A stretch of DNA of 24,046 nt from positions 1-24,046 of the IMG/VR virus record IMGVR_UViG_2617270979_000003; one strand, written 5' to 3'. The stretch comes from a virus (Duplodnaviria > Heunggongvirae > Uroviricota > Caudoviricetes). The notes beneath the pieces are model-generated. The model was given only the letters and a program-made list of their open reading frames with translations, was not told where the DNA came from and did no database searches. Position numbers and translations under genes: made by a program. Of this stretch, positions 1,005 to 22,494 are shown in pieces. Each line of letters opens with the position of its first letter. The stretch's first letter is position 1.

Positions 1005-1580
1005 CTACGGCAGTGCTGGCCATTCAATATCCTGTGCAGTTGACGTATCAACACGGTTCAGCAATACCCGATACTTTTTCCATGCTTCCAGCAACGAGAT
1101 TTCTTCCTCCGTTGCAATTTCCAGATCTGCAGCATCCTGAAGCGGCGCAATATGCTCACTGGCTACCTGCATCAGGTTGTTTTTTGTTTCTTCCGCCTCC
1201 CGGATCCGGAACAGTTTTTCTGCTTCCGTATCCTTCACCCAGGCTGTGCCGTTCCACTTCTGAAACTCCCCTTCCGGCGATAACCAGGTAACATTTTTCG
1301 GTAACGGACCGAGTTCAGAAATAAATAACGCGTCGCCGGAAGCCACGTCATAAACCGTTTTACCCCGATGATCTTCAACGAGATGCCACGATGCCTCATC
1401 ACTGTTGAAAACAGCCACAAAGCCAGCAGGAATATCTGGTGGTGCACTATCGGTACTGTTTGCTGGCAGACCTGTATGAGGCGGAATATATGCGTCACCT
1501 TCACCAATAAATTCATTAGTTCCGGCCAGCAGATTATAAATTTTTATGGTCCGTGGTTGTTCACTCATTCTGAATGCCAT
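1005..1580 (-). CDS. tfaR: Tail fibre assembly chaperone (Tfa family)
   Basis: 191-aa ORF immediately downstream of the tail fibre gene on the same strand, start overlapping its stop; sequence resembles lambdoid Tfa proteins as I recall them. Confidence 0.8.
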
Positions 1581-3484
1581 TATGCAAGCCTCACAATATA
1601 GTTAAATGCGATGTTTTTGACGGTGTTTTCCGCGTTACCAGCAGCGTTAACGGTGATGGTGTGTCCATGTGAACCAATCGCAACGGAGTGCGTATGAGCA
1701 CCAATACCGACAGTATGCGCGTGTGCACCTGCAGATGCTGCTGTGCCGGACAGTGAATGGCTATGATTACCATCTGTACTGGTATTCGCTAACCACCCCG
1801 TAGACATACCTACTGAGCCTTGTACACCCCAGGTATTTTGACCTGAGCTTGTATAACCATATTGATAAGTATCTTTAAAAACACTGGGGTTAAATCGACG
1901 GCCATCTCTATGGCTGTGATTACCAGCTGCATTCGTGCTGCCACTTAAACTATGGGTATGCGCACCAGTGTTATTCGTGGATTTAGTGCCGTAATCAAAC
2001 GACGATGTGGTTTTCGTCCCCAAATCTGTACTGGATGCGCTGGCGCTGTGGGTATGCGATTTAATGCCGTCCTGTTCCTGAGACAATACGGCCCGACCAC
2101 TGGCAGGTTTGCCCTTAATCGTCCAGCCACGCATATCAGGGATCACGCCTGACGGATAAGCAGCTGCAAGTTTCGGGTAAGCAGATTTGTCAAAAGTCTG
2201 CCCCTGCATCAGGGCATAACCAGACGGAACGGTATCTGATGGCCACGGGATTGGTGCGCCGACTGGGTAGCTTTCTGGTGGAAGATTTTTCGAGGTATAA
2301 ACTTCTGCCCAGTCATCCTCAAAACCATAACCGTCTCTTGAAGAACGGTAGAACAGACCACCATTTCTGTAATGCGCCTTCATCTGCAAGGTCCGGCAAC
2401 TTCCGACTCCGGTATAGAAGTTAACCAGAATATAGCTGTCGCCAGAGCGGGTGACATTATAAGCGCCTGATTCGGCATTCCAGGGAACGCCACCATCCGC
2501 ATCGGCATATGTATCCGTTGCCCTTCTGGCAAAAGCAGCCACATGCGCGGCGGTTAAAGTAATATCTTTGGAACCATCAAACTCAACACCAGAAACCCGT
2601 CTTGGCGTTTGCAGCTTTGTTGCTGTTAATGCATTACCGTTCAGACTTGCGGACAGTTTGGTTCCAATAACCAGTTCGCCGGTTGCGTTATCAATAGCAA
2701 ACGGTCTTAATGTATTCCAGCCACCATAAACATCACCTTGATTGGTAAGCAGCAGGTAAGTTTTAGCGCCATCATTACGCCATAATGCCCCATACTCCCC
2801 ACCTATCATTCGAATCTGATTACCACCACGCGCTACAATTTCGTCTGTGGCAAAAAGTTTTTTGCACGACAAGTTATCGTTAACGATTAACGAATGAGAC
2901 TCATAAAAACCACGCCCACTCTTAAAATCAAGGATAACGTCCGCCGCGATACATTCAGTCGCTGGATTTGTTGCCCCAAACTTATAGGTCGTATCATTAA
3001 CAACGAGATCAGCACCAGGTGCGGATATTGACAGGCCATCTTCGATAAACGCAAAAACAGGGAAAGCAGCGCCATCAACATAGAACACAGAGCGCAAATC
3101 ATCGCCCTTATTACTCATCATTATTGAGTGGATGGCTCGTTCATTGTTTTGATATTGCCAGAACATTCCATAAGCATAACGCCCCCTGTCAGTCCAGCCA
3201 CCAGGCATAACAAATCCGTTAAACTCGCAGTTATTCATCGGATCGCCTGCGGTTCGCGTTGCCGTGGTGATAATGACCCTTGATGCCAGTTCGCTTACTG
3301 AGCCAGCAGAACGCATAACAACAACAGGGTAATATTTTCCAGATGTTGCACCTGCAGGAGCGTTAACCCGCACATAACGCATACCACGCTTATCAGCAAA
3401 GTCTGTTTTACTGACCGCGTTAATGTTGTTCAGGAAGCGTCCCTTATTCCAGTGCAACCTCAACACCATTAACCAGTTCACCAA
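1580..3484 (-). CDS. stfR: Side tail fibre protein, C-terminal receptor-binding portion with His-x-His repeats; N-terminal part probably missing or frameshifted
   Basis: 634-aa ORF; C-terminus has [77 protein letters not shown], as in T4 gp37 / lambdoid Stf C-termini. Much shorter than the roughly 1100-aa Rac StfR I recall, and upstream reading frames are disrupted. Confidence 0.75.
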
Positions 3485-3779
3485 CCCCTTTCCAGTCTTT
3501 CAGCAGATAACGAGCGGCATTATCAATGAGTAAATCATCAACAGAATCCACCTCGGAAACCTTTGAAATATCAAACTCCTTCGTTCCGACGTGCAAACTG
3601 GCATCCATTTTCTCAATGTGGCGACGGATTAATGCATTACGGGAGCGATACTGATCGTTATCGCTGCTTGCCACCTACAGTTTTAACCCGTCTACAGGTT
3701 TTAAGTCCTTCATTGGCGTAAACCAGCGTTCTCCACCAATGATAATTTTCTGATTAAGAATAAACATCCATAACCTCAT
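3444..3779 (-). pseudogene. Amber-interrupted ORF remnant upstream of the tail fibre gene (34 codons, in-frame TAG, 76 codons), overlapping the stf start in another frame
   Basis: Hand translation of the minus strand: ATG at 3779, in-frame TAG at 3677..3675, then GTG and 76 more codons to 3444. The 3' end overlaps the 5' end of the 634-aa stf ORF. Confidence 0.3.
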
Positions 3780-3969
3780 TCAATGCGTCCCCCTGTAGGG
3801 CAGTACCACAGGAGGAATAACGGAAAATCAACTAATCGCCTCAGCACTGGCTTTTGCGATCACGGCAGCCAGTGCTACTGGGGGCGGAGGTGTTGCTGGT
3901 AAAGTTAGGTATTGGATCAATGAGTGAGTCAACATAATATTAAACTCACAATTATAAATCAGCCATATA

Positions 3970-5427
3970 TTAGGAGCGCCAAAAAAAACCTGAAAACAAT
4001 ATAATAACAGGATAAATTTCAAGGCGACCAAGAATCATAGCTATGCACATTAAATATTTTGCAATGTCATTAAGCACTCCGAATGACGATGCAGTAGCCC
4101 CAAAACCTAATCCCATATTATTAATACATGCAGCCACTGTTGCAAATGATGTAAGAAAATCATATCCCATACCATTTAACACCAGTATAAAAAACACCGT
4201 GAAGAGAGTATAAAGAAAAAAGAAACTCCATACAGACCTCATTACACGATCTGTAACTATCTTCCCTCCTACATTTACACTCAACAACGCTCTGGGATGA
4301 GAAAGCTGATTTATCTCGTGTTTGCTTTGTTTGAAAAGTATAAGAAATCGAAGTGACTTAATTCCACCACAAGTTGAACCTATACATCCCCCAAAGAAAC
4401 TTGACAACAGCAAAAACACTATCGTGTGCGTGGGCCAACTTGCATAATCCTGCGTAGCTAAACCATTATCAGTGAGCATGGAGCTGGCAAGAAAAAACGA
4501 ATGAATAAAACTTCCATGCAAGTCATACATACCTATATGCCAGACCTGGAAAGAGGTAACAATGATCACCCCTAAGGCTATTAACAGAAAGAAACGAAGT
4601 TCAATATCTCTGATTAAAGGTTTTATCGTTTTCCTGCTAATAACAATATACCAAAGAGTGAAGTTGAAAGCCGATAGCAGGGAAAAAGAACCAGCCACCA
4701 GCTCAACCAAATAGTTATTAAAATATCCGATACTCTCGCTATGAGTTGAGAAACCACCAAGCGAAACTGTGGAAATCCCGTGACAAATAGCATGAAACAA
4801 AGGCATTCCTGCAAGTCTATAACAGACAATACAAGCAATACCTAATAAAGAATAAGTTATCCACAGTGTCCGTGACGTATCGGCCAGGCGGGGAGTGAGT
4901 TTGTCATCCTTAAATGGCCCCGGCATTTCTGACTGATAAAGCTTTGCACCACCAATACCCAATAATGGCAATACAGCAACCGCCAGAACAATAACTCCTA
5001 AACCACCTATAAAATTTAACTGTGACCGATAGTACAAATATGCCCGAGGTAATGAACTAACATCATCAATTACAGTTGCTCCTGTTGTTGTTATTCCAGA
5101 AACCCCTTCAAACAGAGCATCAATGAACGTTAAATTAAGTTCTGAGTCAATCCATAAAGGGAATGCACTAATAACAGAAAACAAAATCCAAAACATTACA
5201 ATTATAATAAACCCATCACGGGTACGTAATTGAATGCCAGATTTCTTAGTTGTATACCACGCTCCGCCACCAATGCAAAAAAATATAACGAAAGTTATAA
5301 AGAAAACAAACAGGCTTTTTTCTTTATAAAACAATGCTACAACCATTGGTGGCAACATTGAAAGACTATAGAGCCAAACTAGGAACCCACACATATGAGT
5401 AACAACTCTTACATGAGATGTATTCAT
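3970..5427 (-). CDS. trkG: Trk-system K+ uptake membrane protein TrkG
   Basis: Polytopic membrane protein; the ORF from its 7th codon (MNTSHVRVVTHMCGF...) gives 485 aa, the length I recall for TrkG; visibly A+T-rich compared with flanking phage genes; same position after Rz as in Rac. Confidence 0.85.
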   Translation of the reverse strand: MNTSHVRVVTHMCGFLVWLYSLSMLPPMVVALFYKEKSLFVFFITFVIFFCIGGGAWYTTKKSGIQLRTRDGFIIIVMFWILFSVISAFPLWIDSELNLTFIDALFEGVSGITTTGATVIDDVSSLPRAYLYYRSQLNFIGGLGVIVLAVAVLPLLGIGGAKLYQSEMPGPFKDDKLTPRLADTSRTLWITYSLLGIACIVCYRLAGMPLFHAICHGISTVSLGGFSTHSESIGYFNNYLVELVAGSFSLLSAFNFTLWYIVISRKTIKPLIRDIELRFFLLIALGVIIVTSFQVWHIGMYDLHGSFIHSFFLASSMLTDNGLATQDYASWPTHTIVFLLLSSFFGGCIGSTCGGIKSLRFLILFKQSKHEINQLSHPRALLSVNVGGKIVTDRVMRSVWSFFFLYTLFTVFFILVLNGMGYDFLTSFATVAACINNMGLGFGATASSFGVLNDIAKYLMCIAMILGRLEIYPVIILFSGFFWRS

Positions 5428-5564
5428 ATCTAAATATTCTTTCAATTATAACCACCTTGCTGCAATATTATGATTATACTGTATAAAATTTAACTCCTCT
5501 TAGATCTTACTTCACTGTTCCTTATGAAACAATCATCAAAATGAATCATATTGTAGTTAAGATT

Positions 5565-6029
5565 TTACTTTAAACACTGCTCGGTTATGTATTGCTGAGC
5601 ACCTTCAAGTTGGGCCTGCATCATTACCAGTCGTTCCCGGAGGGTGAAATAATCCCGTTCAGCGGTGTCTGCCAGTCGGGGGGAGGCTGCATTATCCACG
5701 CCGGAGGCGGTGGTGGCTTCACGCACTGACTGACAGACTGCTTTGATGTGCAACCGACGACGACCAGCGGCAACATCATCACGCAGAGCATCATTTTCAG
5801 CTTTCGCATCAGCTAACTCCTTCGTGTATTTTGCATCGAGCGCAGCAACATCACGCTGACGCATCTGCATGTCAGTAATTGCCGCGTTCGCCAGCTTCAG
5901 TTCTCTGGCATTTTTGTCGCGCTGGGCTTTGTAGGTAATGGCGTTATCACGGTAATGATTAACAGCCCATGACAGGCAGACGATGATGCAGATAACCAGA
6001 GCGGAGATAATCGCGGTTACTCTGTTCAT
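5565..6029 (-). CDS. Spanin inner-membrane subunit (Rz)
   Basis: N-terminal TM segment ([20 protein letters not shown]) followed by charged coiled-coil-like sequence; start MNRVT overlaps the endolysin stop as ATGA; position after the endolysin. Confidence 0.8.
5624..5809 (-). CDS. Spanin outer-membrane lipoprotein subunit (Rz1), embedded in Rz in another frame
   Basis: 61-aa ORF wholly inside Rz; lipoprotein signal ending at a Cys (LPLVVVGC), proline-rich mature part ([15 protein letters not shown]). Confidence 0.7.
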
Positions 6030-6523
6030 TGCTGACCCCACAAACAGATTTCACGCTCAATCTCACGACGAGTCATGAGACCTTTCCATTGCTTACCGCC
6101 AGCATATGTCCAGCGACGTAGCTGATCACATGCGCCTTTGATATCGCCCTGGTTTATTTTGCGAAGAAGCGTCGATGTTCTGAAATTGCCAGCACCCACG
6201 TTGTAAACGAATGAGTAAAGAGCGCCGCGCGTTGTTTCCGGTATATCGACTTTGATGTACGGGTTAATTTGTCTGGCGACAGTGGCAAGGTCTTTATTCA
6301 AGAGTGTTTTGCATTCTGCTTTGGTATACGTTTTACCGAGCATGATGTCTTTTCCTGTATGCCCGTGACATACAGTCCATACACCAACAATATCTTTGTA
6401 TGGTATGTAGCTGACACCTTCCAGACCATCGTTACCACTTGGGCCAGTGATTAACACTGATGCTATAGCAATTGCTCCGCCACCAATAGCAGCAGCAACG
6501 ACTTTTCGTAATGATGGAGGCAT
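6026..6523 (-). CDS. SAR endolysin (phage lysozyme, phage-21 R type)
   Basis: 165-aa ORF; N-terminal Gly/Ala-rich weakly hydrophobic signal-anchor-release segment ([18 protein letters not shown]) followed by the lysozyme catalytic region ([24 protein letters not shown]). Confidence 0.9.
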
Positions 6524-6738
6524 TATTCACCTCTCGCAGCCTTGCGCTTATCTTCTTTAATCTTGAAATAAAGGTTTGTCAGGTACGTCAGCAGGCCAAA
6601 TACCAGACTACCCAGCACACCGATTGCAGCCCACTGTGACGGAGTTACTCTATCGAGCAACTGTAAAAACCAGTAGCCAGCACTGCCTGCGGAGGTGCCG
6701 TAGGCAATGCCTGTTGAAATTTTGTCCATGGATTTCAT
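6523..6738 (-). CDS. Pinholin (S21-like) with dual-start motif MKSMDK
   Basis: 71-aa product from [26 protein letters not shown]... with two TM segments and a charged C-terminus; closely resembles phage 21 S as I recall it. The ORF-track Met lies further upstream and is unlikely to be used. Confidence 0.85.
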
Positions 6739-6989
6739 AGCCTCACCTCCGCACGGAACGGATGGCATAGTTATTATGTGTAGGCTTTCAGACACATCAA
6801 TCAGAGCCTTAATTGATATATATGCTGGAGACGATGCAATATAAAAAGCTCGCCGTAGCGAGCTAATAAAATGTATTTCTCTGATATTATGTTTATTTGT
6901 ATTAGCTCAGACTTGACATCACAGGTTTCGTATATAGAACATCATCAAATCTGTCAGTTTGCTATGAATGAGATATAGTAATTGAAGAG

Positions 6990-7385
6990 CTAACCTCGCA
7001 TGTCAAAGCCAGATTTCTGAAAATCTCTGTAGACTTCCGGATTGTTGAAGGCCGGAAATTTGGCTTTATGAGCTGCGGACTTTATCGCTTCGCAATAGGC
7101 TTTATCACCGTTACTGGTAGATATTTTTAACGCCGTGCCATCCTGAGAGAATTCCATATGCAACCTGCATTTTTTCCCTTTCCAGTTATGCGGCTCATCA
7201 AGTTTGGCATTAATTACAGCTCTGATTCCCCGCGCTTGCGCCCCCCATTCATCCTGATCATCCCAGCGTCCTGAACTGCAACTACCTGTAGCAGTAGTTT
7301 TGTGGCAATCTGAAGGGTGTAAAGGTGTGCATCCCGCAACAAAACCGACCCAAAAAGTCAACATAACGATTTTCTTTAATCCCAC
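6990..7385 (-). CDS. Lipoprotein with TolA C-terminal (domain III)-like domain, paralog 2
   Basis: Signal peptide with lipobox (FVAGC); C-terminal region (KKCRLHMEFSQDGTALKIS...GDKAYCEAIKSAAHKAKFPAFNNPEVYRDFQKSGFDMRG) is a diverged copy of the domain found in the neighbouring paralog. Confidence 0.65.
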   Translation of the reverse strand: MGLKKIVMLTFWVGFVAGCTPLHPSDCHKTTATGSCSSGRWDDQDEWGAQARGIRAVINAKLDEPHNWKGKKCRLHMEFSQDGTALKISTSNGDKAYCEAIKSAAHKAKFPAFNNPEVYRDFQKSGFDMRG

Positions 7386-7535
7386 TTCTTGCTCCTCAAT
7401 CCATTAAAATCTCAGCAATAGTAGTTGTTACGTCCGCCACTGGCTCAGAGCTGACTATCCGCTAAATTTAGCTCAGTGCCGTAGCTGTGTCAGAACAAAC
7501 CTAAGCCGAAACCGTTTATTACAAAACAATAAATA

Positions 7536-7964
7536 TCAGGGTTTAAAATCCAGCACCCCATTTTGAAATACTTTATATACTTCCGGCGAAGGGGGGGCAG
7601 GTATATCAGCATTCTTTATCGCATTCATCGCTTCACGACATAAATCGAGGTCTCCACTTTCTCTTTTAACCTCCAGTAGAAGGCCATTCGGGGCCATATG
7701 CATTCTCAGTGTACACTCTTTTCCTGAATACTTACTCGCATCCCCGAACTGTTTTTCGATGGCGCTCTTGATTTGATGGGCATACAGACGGATATCCTCA
7801 CTAACATCAGAAGTACGTTCAGATGAACTCACATACTGTGTCTCTATTGCTTTATCGGGGTAATATGATGTACGGTCATGATAATTTGTCGATACAGCAT
7901 CAGTGCACCCGATAATAATCCCACTAATAATCAACGTAAGAATTGATGCGCTACGAAAACCCAT
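7536..7964 (-). CDS. Lipoprotein with TolA C-terminal (domain III)-like domain, paralog 1
   Basis: Signal peptide with lipobox (IIGC); C-terminal HQIKSAIEKQFGDASKYSGKECTLRMHMAPNGLLLEVKRESGDLDLCREAMNAIKNADIPAPPSPEVYKVFQNGVLDFKP matches my recollection of the E. coli TolA C-terminus (..QIKSAIE..F.DAS.Y.GK.CTLR...AP.G.LL....GD..LC......IP.PPS..VY.VF.N..LDFKP). Confidence 0.75.
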   Translation of the reverse strand: MGFRSASILTLIISGIIIGCTDAVSTNYHDRTSYYPDKAIETQYVSSSERTSDVSEDIRLYAHQIKSAIEKQFGDASKYSGKECTLRMHMAPNGLLLEVKRESGDLDLCREAMNAIKNADIPAPPSPEVYKVFQNGVLDFKP

Positions 7965-8552
7965 TTTTCTTCACATATGTCATATAGTAAAGGATTATAT
8001 ATACCGTTGTTTTGGACGCTCAAACAGCGAATCAGATCAAATAAAACGCACATTTGTTAACATTTACACAAAGTCTGCGCGGGATATTCTGAAAGAATAT
8101 CCATAATGTGGAGAGAATCTATTGAAGTGCATGGTGCCGGGTGCCTCCCGGTGAACAAAATGTTCGTGATACCTGTCGGCGATAGAAAAGGTTAATGGTA
8201 TCACCCCACCGCACAGGGGGATTCACCATGCAGGAGTTTTCTTAGCAAACTCACTGCGCGCCCGGCAACTCCCAACCACATAAAATGCGGAGTTTGTGGC
8301 ATTTATGCATATAACTCGCAGGAATTATCTTAAAAAACTGATGTCGATCCGGATTAAAAAGAAGCAGGTCATCATCAGATGACTGGAAAAAAGGAAAACA
8401 AAAAATACTCATCATACAGTTTTGATTGCAGGGATGAGCCTGCTATGCACAATATGCAGAATATAAGCAAGATAAAAATATGCAGGCATATTATTTCGGA
8501 TTTTGTTATTAACACAACCTTTTTAATAATCATTTGGCATACAATAAACCAG

Positions 8553-8581
8553 CCCAAAAAGAACCGCCTAAACAGGCGGTT
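8553..8581 (-). terminator. Candidate intrinsic terminator on the minus strand (7-bp G+C stem, U-rich tail)
   Basis: AACCGCC / GGCGGTT stem with a 6-nt loop; on the minus strand it is followed by CTTTTTG. Confidence 0.35.
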
Positions 8582-8901
8582 GGTCAATACAAAGGATGCT
8601 TCGTCTTTATTATAGTAATCTGAGGCGTCGGGTGTCTTGTATCAGACAACATATTGTCCCGCTAAACAGCGAATTACAAACCACCCTGCAATGATCTCTC
8701 ATCTCATTTTATATGAGTTGACGACATCAGGATAACGCATCATCAGCCCCTGCCAAGAAATATCAAAACTCCCGCCAGCAATGTGTTATCACAATATTGT
8801 AAAAAAAACACAGCACCGAAACTATAACTGGTCTCTGTTATAATTTGGAGCAGAAAGACCAGTTGCCCAACTAGCAGCATTCTCCCCTGCTTTCCTGACG
8901 T

Positions 8902-8928
8902 AAAAAAACCGCATTAAGCGGTTTTTTT
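8902..8928. terminator. Bidirectional hairpin flanked by A7 and T7 runs; candidate tR'-like terminator downstream of the Q-like gene
   Basis: AAAAAAACCGC-ATTAA-GCGGTTTTTTT; lies about 100 bp downstream of the Q-like gene stop on the late-gene strand. Confidence 0.5.
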
Positions 8929-9008
8929 ACGATGTCCATGTCTGCAATCCGCCTCGCGATACAGCTTTGCGAAGCATAGCAAAATTGAAGCAGTTTATAC
9001 GTAAGAAA

Positions 9009-9464
9009 TCAAGCCATTTTATCAGCAAATGATTCACGCATGGGAATATATAGGGCATACTCAGCAACAGCTAACCAATTAGCAATCCGTTTTTCGCATG
9101 TGCTAAAACACCACTCTGGGTGTGCATCATTTAGCAATTCAGCCATTTTGCGCTTAGTCATCCCCCGCCCTTCATAGCGTTGCCGGAGAATGCAAATCAA
9201 TCCTGGATGCTCTGCCAGCACCTCACTTATGACTCGATCAATACATAACGCCTCTGCATCAGTACAATGCGCCAGCCAGCTCTTTTGCTTGCCGTTGATC
9301 ATCTCTCGCAAAAACGCTTCCAGCTCAGCTTTCTCTATTCCCGCTTTTTTCATTCTGCGCAGGGCTTCATTGATGGCTGTTTTCGTCAATTTTTTGGATG
9401 CCAACAACTGATTGAACATATTTCCTGACCTGCCACCGCCAATATACGACCAGCGCCCCCACAT
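9009..9464 (-). CDS. Putative late-gene antiterminator (Q-like); start uncertain
   Basis: Last ORF before a terminator hairpin and the lysis region; has a WGRW motif near the chosen start and several Cys pairs, reminiscent of Q-family proteins. The ORF-track start (9671) would overlap the upstream gene by over 120 nt, so an internal Met is preferred. Confidence 0.5.
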   Translation of the reverse strand: MWGRWSYIGGGRSGNMFNQLLASKKLTKTAINEALRRMKKAGIEKAELEAFLREMINGKQKSWLAHCTDAEALCIDRVISEVLAEHPGLICILRQRYEGRGMTKRKMAELLNDAHPEWCFSTCEKRIANWLAVAEYALYIPMRESFADKMA

Positions 9465-9547
9465 ACGCAGTTTGCCCTGAATCCAGACACTTTCCAGCGT
9501 TGCGAGACGAAGGTGTTCTCCGCTTTTTCCTGTATTCGTTGGGTAAA

Positions 9548-9838
9548 TCACAAATATCCCTCCTTTCTCCAGATTTCTTGTGTGCGAAAAACACCTTCTG
9601 CATGCATCAGGCGTAATTCTTCTTTGGTGTAATCGCTGGTTTTTACCCGCCCGTCGATTAGATCGTGGCATGAGCTACAGGCAATCGCCGCCTGCATATC
9701 GTGTGGTTTTGTCGCTGTTCCGCACGTTCCCGCCAGTCGGTAATGCGCCAGCACAGACGTTTCCGGATCGTGATTGCAGTAGCCAGGAATTCTGACGGCG
9801 CACATCTGCCCCCGCGCCGCTTTACGTAAATCCACCAT
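9548..9838 (-). CDS. Nin-region Cys-rich protein (YbcO-like, putative nuclease)
   Basis: 96-aa ORF with Cys clusters (CAVRIPGYCNH...CGT...ACSSCHD); resembles the DLP12 YbcO protein as I recall it; lies in the nin region upstream of Q. Confidence 0.55.
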   Translation of the reverse strand: MVDLRKAARGQMCAVRIPGYCNHDPETSVLAHYRLAGTCGTATKPHDMQAAIACSSCHDLIDGRVKTSDYTKEELRLMHAEGVFRTQEIWRKEGYL

Positions 9839-10437
9839 TACGCAAACTCCAGCAGCTGCGCGGCCACATTTTCGACTTGTTCCGGAGAGGAAAATTTACG
9901 GAACAGAATCCAGTTCCACAGCACATTCAGAACAGATTTATAAACCTGCTGAAACTCGACTTCGTCCATATTCGCAAAAGCGATGGATTTCGCCCGACGC
10001 CCATGGCTACCGTCCGGATAAAAATGTTCGGTGTAAAATCCAGCCTGAATGGTTACCCACTCGCGAAAAGCCTCAAACGACTTTAACAATGCCGTATCCC
10101 GGGTTCTGCGTGTCGCAACTGTATTCAGATATTGCTCTGCGGCATCACTCAGGGCTGGCGTGTGTTCCCGACCAACTGATTCGCACAGGTAATCAACGAA
10201 ACCAGACAGCAGTTTTCGTTCGCGAGGCGTGATCGCCCCACCGACCGGAGTCCAGTAATCAAATCCCAGTTGCAGGAGTTTGAAAAAACGCTTGTGGAAT
10301 GCGTAGTTACGCACACGCTTAAAGTCTGCGTGTATCCACTCGCCTATTTTGATTTGATGCAGAAAATCACAACTCTCCGGCGTCGCCGGGAGAAGTAATC
10401 CGGAAGAGGTTTGTTTGACCAGTTGTATATGCGCCAT
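9838..10437 (-). CDS. Conserved lambdoid nin-region protein of unknown function
   Basis: 199-aa ORF with ordinary codon usage, 1-nt overlap with the downstream gene; no motif I can name with confidence. Confidence 0.55.
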   Translation of the reverse strand: MAHIQLVKQTSSGLLLPATPESCDFLHQIKIGEWIHADFKRVRNYAFHKRFFKLLQLGFDYWTPVGGAITPRERKLLSGFVDYLCESVGREHTPALSDAAEQYLNTVATRRTRDTALLKSFEAFREWVTIQAGFYTEHFYPDGSHGRRAKSIAFANMDEVEFQQVYKSVLNVLWNWILFRKFSSPEQVENVAAQLLEFA

Positions 10438-10710
10438 TTCTCAATCTCTCGATGGCGCAGCGCAGCAGATGCCAGTTGTTCAGGCTGACGTATGAAGTAT
10501 AAATAAACTGGCTCCAGTGTAAAGCCCCCACCTTAATAGAATAAAAACCAAACAACAGATTGCTGGGATACAAACAACGCTTATTATTAAAAGCGGTTAA
10601 ACAAATTAAATTTTAATGTTATGCAAATTTGTCAGATCACCATAATATCTCATTTGAAAACCGCTGAAATAACAACCCTATCAGGATTAATCATATTAAG
10701 GTGAGTAAAT

Positions 10711-10797
10711 ATGGAAAACAACAAATCTGCACATTACGTTCCTTTTTTATCTGTAATACTTTTTGTTTTATGCTGTGCGTGGGCATTATTTTTATAA
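10711..10797 (+). CDS. Candidate small hydrophobic peptide (28 aa, MENNKSAHYVPFLSVILFVLCCAWALFL)
   Basis: ATG preceded by AAGGTGA at 7-nt spacing; single hydrophobic helix; below the ORF-track cutoff; convergent with hok. Confidence 0.3.
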   Translation: MENNKSAHYVPFLSVILFVLCCAWALFL

Positions 10798-10865
10798 AAA
10801 TATTTACAGATGAAATAAACCCGCCAATCAGGTTAACTGTGGCTGCGTTGAGGATGCATAATACA

Positions 10866-11114
10866 TCAGAGGTTGCGGGGATTTCTCCCCGCTGGTCCTC
10901 TTACTCCCCAAGTTCGTAAGCTGTGAAGACAGCGACCTCCGTCTGGTCGGTTCGGATTCGTACCTCGCAGAGGTCTTTCCTCGTTACCAGTACCGTCACT
11001 ATAACGGTTAAACAGATGACGATCAGGGTGATTAACATCGCCTTTTGCTGCTTCATAACCTGCTTCTCCTTGACCTTTTGGTCGGTAAGAGGCTAATCTA
11101 CGTATGCAAAGCAT
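10866..11114 (-). CDS. mok: Mok-like overlapping reading frame (translational coupler for hok)
   Basis: 82-codon ORF in another frame that starts 58 nt upstream of the hok ATG, spans hok and ends beyond its stop; GAGG 8 nt upstream of its ATG. Confidence 0.45.
   Translation of the reverse strand: MLCIRRLASYRPKGQGEAGYEAAKGDVNHPDRHLFNRYSDGTGNEERPLRGTNPNRPDGGRCLHSLRTWGVRGPAGRNPRNL
10901..11056 (-). CDS. hok: Hok/Gef-family type I toxin (51 aa)
   Basis: Hand translation of the minus strand gives MKQQKAMLITLIVICLTVIVTVLVTRKDLCEVRIRTDQTEVAVFTAYELGE, nearly identical to HokD/RelF as I recall it; absent from the ORF track because it is under 60 aa. Confidence 0.85.
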   Translation of the reverse strand: MKQQKAMLITLIVICLTVIVTVLVTRKDLCEVRIRTDQTEVAVFTAYELGE

Positions 11115-11170
11115 AGATGTGGCCTCAGATTAATGTTAAGCGTCTTGCCGGACGCGTAATGTTAACTGGG
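11106..11170 (+). ncRNA. sok: Predicted Sok-like antisense RNA (approximate boundaries)
   Basis: Plus-strand TTGACC (11070..11075), 18-bp spacer, TAATCT (11094..11099) would start a transcript complementary to the mok SD and start codon; 3' end not defined. Confidence 0.3.
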
Positions 11171-11481
11171 GCTTTTCTCTATCTGCCTTTGGTGTTCATG
11201 CCCGAGGCAGACAGCCTCAAGCACCCGCAGCAATTCTACTTAACTATCCTTTTCCCGCAAATCGTTTTATCCTCAACGCAAATTTCACCAGTCCCCCCAA
11301 CTCGTGTCCCTTACCCTAAGGCTGTTTCCCTCTTTACACAGAAGATAATTAATGTATTATTTTTTACAAACAATCAATTAAGAGCTATCTGTGGGTGGAG
11401 TCGACTTGCGGTAGCTTTTTCTTTTATGCATTGCACACATTCATGCTCTAATATATTCCTATATGTTCAAAAGGACTTTTC

Positions 11482-12414: not shown

Positions 12415-12965
12415 ACAAGATTAACGTAATGAGTGTAATAAAAAAACATTACACAACAATGTCGGATCAACGCGGAAATATTTTACTCGAAGACATCGCA
12501 ATACACTTCATTATTCCTCTTACATTATCATTAATCATATGTTTTACCTATGGGATAATGAAAACCTCTATCGCATCTGTTTTTGTTAACTTTGGAGCAA
12601 TTACTACCGCACTGTTAATGAGCGCGGTTATTATGATCTACGATCAAAAACAAAAAACTGTATTTAAAATTTCAGACATTGAGGAAAACAACAAACCACG
12701 TTCAAATCTAATAATTTTAAATAATAATAAAACCGTATATGAGCAATTATGTCACAATGTTTCTTATGCTATATTAACATCTGTAGCGTTAGTTATTTTT
12801 TCGGTTGCAATATATTTTCTCCCAGAAACCCCAAGTGAATTAAAAAAATGGTATTTCGCAACCCCTGCTTACATAATCAGTTATTTAGCATACTCATCCT
12901 TCTTTTTTACCGTAGTAACATTCTTGATGGTTATAAAAAGATTTAGCACAATATTAGATAGTTAA
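12411..12965 (+). CDS. Hypothetical four-helix membrane protein (184 aa), second gene of the cassette
   Basis: Start overlaps the upstream stop (ATGA at 12411..12414); four hydrophobic segments at about residues 28-50, 55-77, 117-137 and 150-176. Confidence 0.7.
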   Translation: MNKINVMSVIKKHYTTMSDQRGNILLEDIAIHFIIPLTLSLIICFTYGIMKTSIASVFVNFGAITTALLMSAVIMIYDQKQKTVFKISDIEENNKPRSNLIILNNNKTVYEQLCHNVSYAILTSVALVIFSVAIYFLPETPSELKKWYFATPAYIISYLAYSSFFFTVVTFLMVIKRFSTILDS

Positions 12966-12976
12966 ACAATGAAACC

Positions 12977-13005
12977 ACCGCCCTTTCGGGCGGTTTCCTG
13001 ATTTT
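12977..13005 (+). terminator. Intrinsic terminator after the two-gene cassette
   Basis: ACCGCCC-TTTC-GGGCGGT stem-loop followed by TTCCTGATTTT, 12 nt after the stop codon. Confidence 0.6.
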
Positions 13006-22305: not shown

Positions 22306-22494
22306 ATGTATAAAATTACCGCCACTATTGAAAAGGAAGGTGGCACTCCTACTAACTGGACAAGATATTCAAAATCTAAACTAACGAAATCAGAATGCGA
22401 AAAAATGCTCTCAGGTAAAAAAGAAGCAGGCGTTTCCAGAGAGCAGAAAGTAAAACTGATAAATTTTAATTGCGAGAAACTTCAGTCCTCGTGA
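22306..22494 (+). CDS. ydaC: YdaC-like small protein
   Basis: ORF MYKITATIEKEGGTPTNWTRYSKSKLTKSECEKMLSGKKEAGVSREQKVKLINFNCEKLQSS with GGAGG 5 nt upstream of this ATG; alternative in-frame ATG at 22294. Confidence 0.55.
   Translation: MYKITATIEKEGGTPTNWTRYSKSKLTKSECEKMLSGKKEAGVSREQKVKLINFNCEKLQSS

Follow-up and report, generated by a model that had tools for sequence, protein, structure and literature searches.

Two Prophage Lipoproteins With a TolA Domain III Between the Q-Like Gene and the Holin of a Rac-Like Escherichia coli Prophage: Candidate Decoys for TolA-Dependent Colicins and Filamentous Phages

Results

Two Lipoprotein Genes in Tandem

Two open reading frames (ORFs), here called A and B, lie one behind the other between the Q-like gene and the holin gene of a Rac-like Escherichia coli prophage, and each joins a lipoprotein signal to a domain known from the C-terminus of TolA. 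The prophage, which carries recE, trkG, stfR and RalA RNA, is the Caudoviricetes record IMGVR_UViG_2617270979_000003 of IMG/VR, and positions 1 to 24,046 of that record were analysed. This whole stretch of 24,046 nucleotides is called the window below; it matches poultry isolates at 99% identity along 95% of its length. Both ORFs are complete in the ORF list, at the positions where a first-pass annotation, made from the letters of the window, had placed them. The features of the pair are listed here, with the basis of each call in brackets; domain III of TolA is abbreviated TolA-III, and dN/dS stands for the ratio of nonsynonymous to synonymous substitution rates.

7536-7964, minus strand: ORF A, a 142-amino-acid lipoprotein precursor with a C-terminal TolA domain III (ATG start, stop codon included)
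7905-7964, minus strand: signal peptide of A with lipobox Cys20, MGFRSASILTLIISGIIIGC, Thr at +2 (translation)
7809-7904, minus strand: linker of A, residues 21-52, predicted to be disordered and poorly conserved (pLDDT, dN/dS)
7539-7808, minus strand: TolA-III domain of A, residues 53-142 (Pfam, PDB match, fold, alignment)
7392-7397, minus strand: Shine-Dalgarno sequence GAGGAG, 6 nucleotides upstream of the GTG of B (read from the sequence)
6990-7385, minus strand: ORF B, a 131-amino-acid lipoprotein precursor with a diverged TolA domain III (GTG start, stop codon included)
7329-7385, minus strand: signal peptide of B with lipobox Cys19, MGLKKIVMLTFWVGFVAGC, Thr at +2 (translation)
7257-7328, minus strand: N-terminal motif specific to the B family, TPLHPSDCHKTTATGSCSSGRWDDQDEW, residues 20-43, with two extra Cys and an acidic W...W stretch (near-invariant across genera)
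6993-7256, minus strand: TolA-III domain of B, residues 44-131 (Pfam, PDB match, fold, alignment)

The translations of A and B begin with a charged n-region that leads through a hydrophobic core to the lipobox Cys, and the lipoboxes, tested against the pattern [LVI][ASTVI][GAS]C, read IIGC followed by T in A and VAGC followed by T in B. This element is kept in 120 of 120 cluster representatives of the B family and in 24 of the 27 full-length representatives of the A family. By the sequence pattern and its conservation both proteins are predicted to be lipoproteins, which agrees with the first-pass annotation in its claim of two lipoprotein ORFs, each with a lipobox Cys. Position +2 is T or S in the representatives of the A family and mainly A, S or T in the 120 of the B family (C in three, G in one and V in one), and Asp was found there in no member of either family. 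In enterobacteria, a residue other than Asp at +2 sorts a lipoprotein to the outer membrane. Because Asp is absent from +2, A and B are predicted to be sorted to the outer membrane; the earlier description "membrane-anchored" thus holds as far as the lipobox goes and becomes more precise with the outer membrane as the predicted destination.

In the AlphaFold models, residues 1-52 of A have a pLDDT below 50, residues 1-25 of B are disordered, and a small hairpin is placed at residues 29-37 of B. The GAGGAG before B is kept in the aligned prophage, pO157, IncK, Enterobacter and Serratia copies. The near-invariant motif behind the lipobox has the consensus PLHPSxCHKTTATGSCSSGRWDDQDEWG in the B family. 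In its SGRWDDQDEWG part an imitation of the TolB box of colicins (DGSGW...W) was considered; the resemblance is loose and the spacing differs, and the idea was not adopted.

Both Proteins Carry TolA Domain III but Neither Is a TolA Ortholog

The Pfam family PF06519 (TolA C-terminal) matched A with 82.6 bits (E 2.4e-23) and B with 53.6 bits (E 2.7e-14), the gathering cut-off being 25, and the one other domain matched was TonB_2. In a phmmer search against the PDB, residues 55-142 of A aligned without a gap with residues 334-421 of E. coli TolA (E 5.6e-28), and residues 51-129 of B aligned with TolA (E 1.7e-8); the identity to TolA 334-421 was 59% for A and 30% for B. Between themselves A and B are 26% identical (E 2e-17), and the disulfide cysteines C363/C388 are invariant in A, in B and in all aligned relatives. 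The pLDDT is about 90 or higher across the domain in both AlphaFold models, which have the TolAIII alpha/beta fold with a three-stranded sheet. Foldseek matched them to the TolAIII structure 3QDP with a TM score of 0.93 at 0.8 Å for A and of 0.92 at 1.1 Å for B, and the next matches were the g3p and colicin A complexes 1TOL, 2X9A and 3QDR. The resemblance of A and B to TolA is real and highly significant. The first-pass annotation had matched the C-terminus of the first ORF to TolA and had named alignment and structure prediction against domain III as a check; both bear the match out.

The resemblance ends with this domain. The model of full-length TolA, NF007065, gave 107.7 bits for A and 51.1 bits for B, below its cut-off of 213; for TIGR02794, B scored 45.1 against a cut-off of 59.45, and the 75.1 bits of A came solely through model positions 266-362. 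Domain I of TolA (transmembrane) and the helical domain II are missing from both proteins, which have a signal and a linker of 25-33 residues instead. Their genes lie outside the tolQRA-tolB-pal cluster and have the Q-like gene, the holin, the endolysin and the spanins as neighbours. Because the full-length model failed, domains I and II are absent and the genes stand outside the tol-pal operon, neither A nor B is a TolA ortholog.

Current annotation handles both genes poorly. RefSeq/PGAP labels A as a pseudogene, "tolA, incomplete, missing N-terminus" (12737-12997 of the near-identical locus L001, which corresponds to 7536-7796 of the window), and this flag results from comparing a short protein with a full-length TolA model. 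B is started at an internal Met and so loses the n-region of its signal peptide (12191-12565 of L001, 6990-7364 of the window), and plasmid B-type genes are annotated with an over-long 5' end that gives 143 amino acids. The pseudogene call of A and the internal start of B are systematic annotation artefacts that affect hundreds of genomes. Where databases name the proteins, PGAP uses "TolA C-terminal domain-containing protein", and the PHROG family phrog_5772 is annotated "unknown function"; in the viral structure library BFVD, no TolA-III-like fold was found. The TolA domain itself is textbook knowledge, and what is new is its natural occurrence as a stand-alone, lipid-tethered TolA-III on prophages, conjugative plasmids and bacteriocin plasmids.

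Ligand-Binding Edges of the Domain

Two edges of TolAIII are used by its ligands. For colicin A it is beta2 (residues 375-380) that receives an added strand, with contacts to K368, K379 and K396 (PMC3365938), whereas g3p N1, colicin N and the N-terminus of TolB each add a strand to beta3, A415-K420 (PMC4339652, PMC7391070, PMC7066135). The key hydrogen bonds at beta3 are made by the backbone of D418 and K420, and prolines at these positions abolish binding (PMC4339652); the g3p contact site used here was taken from that published description. The affinities differ: colicin N binds TolAIII at 1 µM, whereas TolB binds it at 40 µM, about 40 times more weakly (PMC4339652), and the TolB-TolA affinity as a whole is weak, at 40-250 µM (PMC7066135, PMC4339652). 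For colicin A the affinity is 1.3 µM.

In the alignment A keeps both edges. The beta2 segment LLDIKP of TolA corresponds to LLEVKR in A with K379 and K396 kept, and the beta3 segment PLDFKP corresponds to VLDFKP with D418 and K420 kept. In B the beta3 segment reads GFDMRG, which is free of proline and is a predicted strand with diverged side chains. Neither VLDFKP nor GFDMRG has a proline at the positions equivalent to 418 and 420, and both segments are modelled as strands.

A and B Are Independent Units With Different Distributions

Of 5426 complete E. coli genomes, 772 (14%) contain the 1.4-kb region of A and B with at least 99% identity, a figure that refers to DNA identity and not to intact reading frames. 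In a DNA search and tblastn of 50,697 phage genome records, a single one, mEp460_ev081, carried A or B, and there the pair stands behind a different Q gene.

The A family is narrow, with 46 clusters that all come from E. coli or Shigella, and its variants differ among themselves by up to 34%. Variants at 90% and 66% occur without B in the Q-to-holin slot of other lambdoid prophages with other Q types, and an A-type variant occupies that slot in all eight loci displayed, as well as in this window and in mEp460_ev081. Some of these loci also encode an AraC-like regulator or PmrD, and in one (L016) A lies directly upstream of nanS-p, the position of stx in Stx phages. The Q-to-holin slot of related prophages holds other cargo, so that the unit is present, absent or exchanged at the same position.

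The B family is broad, with 368 clusters in Citrobacter, Enterobacter, Klebsiella, Raoultella and Serratia at 78-88% protein identity. The conserved DNA unit, as read from the alignment of copies, is the ORF with about 40 nucleotides upstream, and a B-type gene is found on about 600 plasmids. Its neighbours on pO157 are toxB on one side and the hok/psiAB region on the other, and on IncK2/Z and I-gamma/K1 plasmids the gene follows directly after the relaxase gene nikB and precedes the transfer genes trbABC. In four plasmid loci (L012, L013, L024 and L025) B is on the same strand as nikA-nikB, 68 nucleotides downstream of nikB and facing trbC. Plasmid B may be co-transcribed with the relaxase. 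In Serratia marcescens (L008-L011, 6001-8736), a solitary B adjoins a GmrSD-family (DUF262) gene and a gene for a HEPN-domain protein, a neighbourhood that is defence-island-like.

B was considered as a tandem duplicate of A, and this origin was rejected: the two are 26% identical, their families have separate distributions, and A occurs without B. The first-pass annotation had taken the second ORF for a diverged paralog of the first, of which the shared domain stands and the local duplication does not. B belongs to a separate, older family than A, and because that family is broad and A usually occurs without B, the tandem brings together two units that are independent of each other. A recent capture of the 3' end of host tolA as the source of A was likewise unsupported, at 59% protein identity to TolA and with A variants that differ by up to 34%.

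Selection has acted on both genes. The dN/dS of B is 0.07-0.13 at a dS of 0.5-1.1; for A it is 0.09-0.34 in the domain and 0.4-0.86 over codons 1-54, which encode the signal and linker. Both are under purifying selection and are maintained genes, and since dN/dS is well below 1 at substantial dS, the spread of B is not merely the product of recent transfer.

A Wider Class of Short Secreted TolA-III Proteins

A HMMER search with A gave 330 representatives at E <=1e-3. Among the best 150 of the 330, 67 are short proteins (105-170 amino acids); at least 47 of these have a lipoprotein signal, and several others have an ordinary signal peptide. Asp at +2 occurred in none of the 45 short TolA-III lipoproteins that were scored automatically, and two more added by eye have Thr and Gln. 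In plasmids, tblastn found 1301 records, 660 of them from Klebsiella.

On ColRNAI plasmids of 10-12 kb, the gene of a 123-amino-acid TolA-III lipoprotein (lipobox LTAC) overlaps that of a 121-amino-acid TonB_C protein with a signal peptide, and the pair adjoins genes for a cloacin-like bacteriocin, E3-type immunity and lysis. The whole block is present on at least 238 plasmids, mostly of Klebsiella; on the Klebsiella pneumoniae plasmid NZ_CP044260.1 (L022), for example, the pair at 5908-6641 stands beside the operon at 2876-5062. This operon has its own E3-type immunity gene besides the TolA-III lipoprotein, and CloDF13-like relatives have an Exc2-family lipoprotein in place of the pair. "TolA and TolB family" genes of these plasmids have been mentioned in passing and left unstudied (PMC10269471). 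Judged by their sequences, the short secreted TolA-III proteins form a broad, diverse and uncharacterised class, and the Klebsiella pair consists of free-standing copies of the hubs for both bacteriocin import routes.

Genomic Context in the Prophage

The surroundings of the pair in the window comprise the following features.

9009-9551, minus strand: Q-like gene, DUF1133 (Pfam DUF1133, 352.7 bits; PGAP product of 180 amino acids)
8075-8261, minus strand: element of the STnc100 small RNA (sRNA) family, just upstream of A (Rfam, 85.6 bits; gathering score 47)
7994-8023, minus strand: sigma-70 promoter-like site TTGAGC-18-TATAAT, 30 nucleotides upstream of A (pattern scan, 10/12)
7465-7493, minus strand: weak promoter-like site CTGACA-17-TAAATT in the spacer between A and B (pattern scan, 9/12)
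6838-6864, minus strand: clear intrinsic terminator AGCTCGCTACGGCGAGCT followed by a T-run, between the stop of B and the start of the holin
6523-6738, minus strand: P21-type holin S (Pfam Phage_holin_2_1, 119.9 bits; essD in the near-identical locus)
6026-6523, minus strand: endolysin (Pfam Phage_lysozyme)
5565-6041 and 5624-5809, minus strand: Rz and Rz1 spanins (Pfam Phage_lysis, Rz1)

Upstream of A stands a DUF1367-YbcO-DUF1133 module, and the Q-like DUF1133 protein reached 25.5 bits for Phage_antitermQ, just below the cut-off of 26. With this gene on one side and the P21-type holin, the lysozyme and Rz/Rz1 on the other, the pair does occupy the slot between Q and holin to which it had been assigned in the first-pass annotation. 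This slot is the place where Stx phages carry stx. The lysis cassette (6026-6795, minus strand) is of the P21 type, with a pinholin-like S and a lysozyme whose N-terminus resembles a signal-anchor-release domain.

The promoter-like site at 7994-8023 is a candidate promoter of the A-B unit; the region is common to the 90% variant of A, in which the -10 element is TGTAAT. Together with the terminator after B it would give the unit a moron-like layout. Two strong hairpin terminators follow the Q-like gene at about 8900-8925 and 8562-8638 (minus strand), of which one, AAAAAACCGCTTAATGCGGTTTTTTT, lies about 85 nucleotides past the Q-like stop codon, and the other, AACCGCCTGTTTAGGCGGTT, runs into a T-run and is preceded by the promoter-like AAGACA-18-TATAAT. 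These hairpins and promoter-like sites are candidates for the late pR'/tR' pair.

Copies of STnc100 flank A-type genes in three prophage loci (L018, L019 and L003), and in two loci (L019 and L021) the DUF1367-YbcO-DUF1133 Q module is followed by A alone and by STnc100 copies. The copies lie at 4704-4877, 5599-5803 and 5854-6061 in L018/L019 and at 5444-5634 in L003. In related prophages one copy precedes and two follow the A-type gene, and they occupy 1.4 kb that otherwise look gene-free. The repeats, of about 200 nucleotides, could be recombination linkers for cargo exchange between Q and holin, or late-region regulatory RNAs.

No tRNA genes were found in the Q-to-S region of the window, though they are present in related prophages. 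Among the annotated neighbours screened, from about 3865 to 11245 of the window, there was no bacteriocin gene, and in Pfam, where A and B matched the TolA and TonB_2 domains only, neither showed homology to a colicin or bacteriocin immunity family. Elsewhere in the window, trkG (potassium transporter, 3970-5427, minus strand) was placed by collinearity with the near-identical locus L001, and the sok antisense RNA with hokD (11051-11226, minus strand), the RalA antitoxin RNA (22312-22490, minus strand) and an IS009 RNA element (1039-1237, minus strand) were also located.

Discussion

A and B as Possible Decoys

We tentatively propose that A and B are decoys that trap TolA-dependent colicins and the g3p of filamentous phages, an explanation that we regard as possible rather than probable and that would make them lysogenic-conversion (moron) genes. 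In this model, each product would receive its lipid on the lipobox Cys after export and would end up in the inner leaflet of the outer membrane. From there a flexible tether of about 25-33 residues would present an isolated TolA domain III to the periplasm, at the very place where translocation domains and g3p come through. Group A colicins (A, N, K and others) and g3p N1 must capture TolA as a hub once they are past the outer membrane, and the decoy would be a copy of this hub that leads nowhere. A translocation domain or g3p N1 on its way in would add its beta-strand to the edge of the decoy (beta3, and in A also beta2) and would bypass the real TolA. Since A and B have neither the transmembrane helix nor domain II of TolA, they are uncoupled from the TolQR motor; without its force, entry would stall, and the lysogen or plasmid host would become tolerant regardless of the killing activity of the toxin.

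The support for such decoys, which the first-pass annotation had already suggested alongside a possible aid to lysis, is circumstantial. A keeps both edge strands, and the parasitic ligands bind TolAIII more tightly than TolB does; because the invaders bind at about 1 µM and TolB at 40-250 µM, a decoy could trap them with little interference with TolB. For the ligands of E. coli TolA, A is the stronger decoy candidate, and the ligand range of B may be narrower or different. B travels as a minimal unit into contexts compatible with exclusion, namely behind nikB of IncK/Z and I-gamma plasmids, on pO157 and beside GmrSD and HEPN genes in Serratia, and its place next to the relaxase of I-complex plasmids is suggestive in this respect. 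IncI pili are the receptor of phage IF1 and IncI plasmids are the type members of the I-complex; IF1 might adsorb to IncK/Z pili as well. IF1 uses TolAIII as its coreceptor, and its g3p bound to TolAIII is the structure 2X9A, found among the PDB matches. The link of a TolA-III lipoprotein to a Klebsiella bacteriocin operon is an independent, again circumstantial, argument. The moron-like position behind different Q types and the maintenance of both genes would fit as well. Levengood-Freyermuth, Click and Webster reportedly found in 1993 that overproduction of periplasmic TolA-III confers tolerance to group A colicins and to Ff phages.

Several points weigh against the decoy model. In B, the three lysines that contact colicin A are replaced by E, S and H, and the sequence of beta3 has diverged. 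The B gene of Enterobacter kobei is solitary and chromosomal, among metabolic genes and with no mobile-element signature, which hints at a physiological rather than a defensive role. PADLOC gave no defence-system match for A or B, and a functional study of A, B or their relatives, and with it experimental data, was not found in the full-text literature. Expression in the lysogen would depend on a promoter proposed from its match to the consensus, and promoter-like sites, which are consensus matches only, are not clearly enriched, with 12 found against 7.6 ± 2.5 expected. Since A is found solely among the late genes, its synthesis might be confined to induced cells. One site on TolAIII serves TolB, g3p and colicin N alike, so an effective decoy could disturb Tol-Pal; the 1993 study reportedly saw leaky outer membranes. 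Finally, the associations with neighbouring genes could be coincidental.

Alternative Explanations

The main alternative is that A and B modulate Tol-Pal, although we consider this unlikely. A tethered TolA-III would hold TolB by its N-terminal strand at the outer membrane and block the force-dependent release of TolB from Pal, which could loosen the outer membrane and aid the spanins at lysis, or increase vesicle formation in the lysogen. Within the late operon, which depends on Q, the genes directly precede those of the holin, endolysin and spanins, a position from which they would be strongly transcribed at induction, and every displayed A-type locus is in this slot. TolB uses the beta3 site that is conserved in A, a block of TolA-TolB binding produces the full tol phenotype with a destabilised outer membrane (PMC4339652), and modulation of TolB interactions could regulate vesicle production according to a review of Tol-Pal (PMC7391070). 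B-type genes, however, also occur on plasmids and chromosomes without lysis genes, and because B is found so far from them, an aid to lysis is a weaker reading for B, less so for A. In lambdoid phages the spanins already suffice to disrupt the outer membrane, and the terminator between B and the holin is what an autonomous unit would have. At a TolB-TolA affinity of only 40-250 µM, sequestration would need a very high copy number, and a chronic tol phenotype is costly, yet the cassette is present in 14% of complete E. coli genomes.

Binding of some other envelope ligand is also improbable as the explanation, and it concerns B above all, whose Cys-loop, acidic W...W stretch and remodelled surface would then bind a partner unrelated to TolA. 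A role in I-complex conjugation or in Enterobacter and Serratia housekeeping may be considered, in which case carriage by the prophage would be incidental. The 30% identity of B to TolAIII, with differences at the colicin A site and in the side chains of beta3, would fit such a partner, as would an N-terminal motif that is near-invariant across genera in a gene that is strongly purified throughout. The fixed position after nikB and the stable chromosomal locus in E. kobei point the same way, and the size and diversity of the class of short secreted TolA-III proteins suggest more than one function. On the other hand, no neighbourhood offered a candidate ligand, the association with bacteriocin plasmids again suggests import pathways, and the 59% identity of A with both edges intact is hard to explain unless TolA partners are bound.

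Decay, with A as a non-functional 3' remnant of a captured tolA and B as a similar relic, would agree with the PGAP label and with the score of A below the TolA equivalog cut-off, but it is scarcely credible and effectively refuted by conservation, given complete ORFs with start codons, family-conserved signal peptides and lipoboxes, domains that fold confidently, a dN/dS well below 1 and a region kept at the DNA level in 772 genomes.

Implications of the Decoy Model

The decoy model can be extended beyond this prophage. Secreted TolA-III proteins and periplasmic TonB_C copies would then be widespread, unrecognised decoys of mobile elements, placed in the moron slot in prophages, beside the relaxase in conjugative plasmids and beside the toxin operon in bacteriocin plasmids, and the protection they give against bacteriocins that depend on Tol or Ton and against pilus-specific filamentous phages would be broad, whatever the toxin. 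We regard this extension as doubtful, and more so than the proposal for A and B themselves.

If the decoy model holds, resistance to bacteriocins and filamentous phages at the level of import would be carried by roughly one in seven of the E. coli strains sequenced, by many plasmids of the I-complex and pO157 types and by hundreds of bacteriocin plasmids of Klebsiella, and it would require neither a classical immunity protein nor the loss of a receptor. Such resistance would bear on the ecology of colicins in the gut and on bacteriocin, phage, phage-display and Ff-based uses against Enterobacteriaceae, and the TolA-III variants would be a natural toolkit to dissect force transduction by Tol-Pal. 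Should the decoy model fail, the mislabelling of A as a tolA pseudogene in RefSeq and a large uncharacterised TolA-III family would still have been brought to light.

Comparison With Known Systems

The nearest relative of the two domains is domain III of E. coli TolA itself (1S62, 3QDP, 1TOL, 2X9A), with which A and B share the fold at about 1 Å, the disulfide, and the beta2 and beta3 edges that bind colicin A and g3p N1, colicin N and TolB, respectively. In contrast to TolA, they are encoded by a prophage and are lipid-anchored, in the predicted outer membrane instead of the inner membrane. Laboratory expression of periplasmic TolAIII fragments, g3p or colicin T-domains, which reportedly makes cells tolerant to colicins and Ff phages, is the closest precedent in function, and the proposed decoy would be its natural counterpart, an uncoupled TolAIII that competes. 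The laboratory TolAIII constructs are soluble and overproduced and reportedly cause leakiness, whereas A and B are natural, lipid-tethered, mobile and diverged from host TolA.

Cor of phi80 and N15, Llp of T5 and TraT of F are likewise small outer-membrane lipoproteins that mobile elements direct against competitors, often as morons or accessory genes. They block receptors in the outer membrane (FhuA, OmpA), whereas A and B would mimic a periplasmic coreceptor, and no sequence relation of A and B to them was seen in Pfam and PHROG, which gave only TolA and phrog_5772. The lambdoid morons bor, lom and stx are comparable as accessory units near the late region with promoter-like and terminator elements and variable presence; their proteins and functions differ from those of A and B, whose own promoter is putative. 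The TolA-III lipoprotein of the Klebsiella ColRNAI plasmids is the most similar arrangement, as it too combines a lipobox, a short linker and TolA-III on a mobile element. It is about 39% identical to A, is paired with TonB_C, has the cloacin-like operon next to it, and resides on small mobilizable plasmids rather than on prophages.

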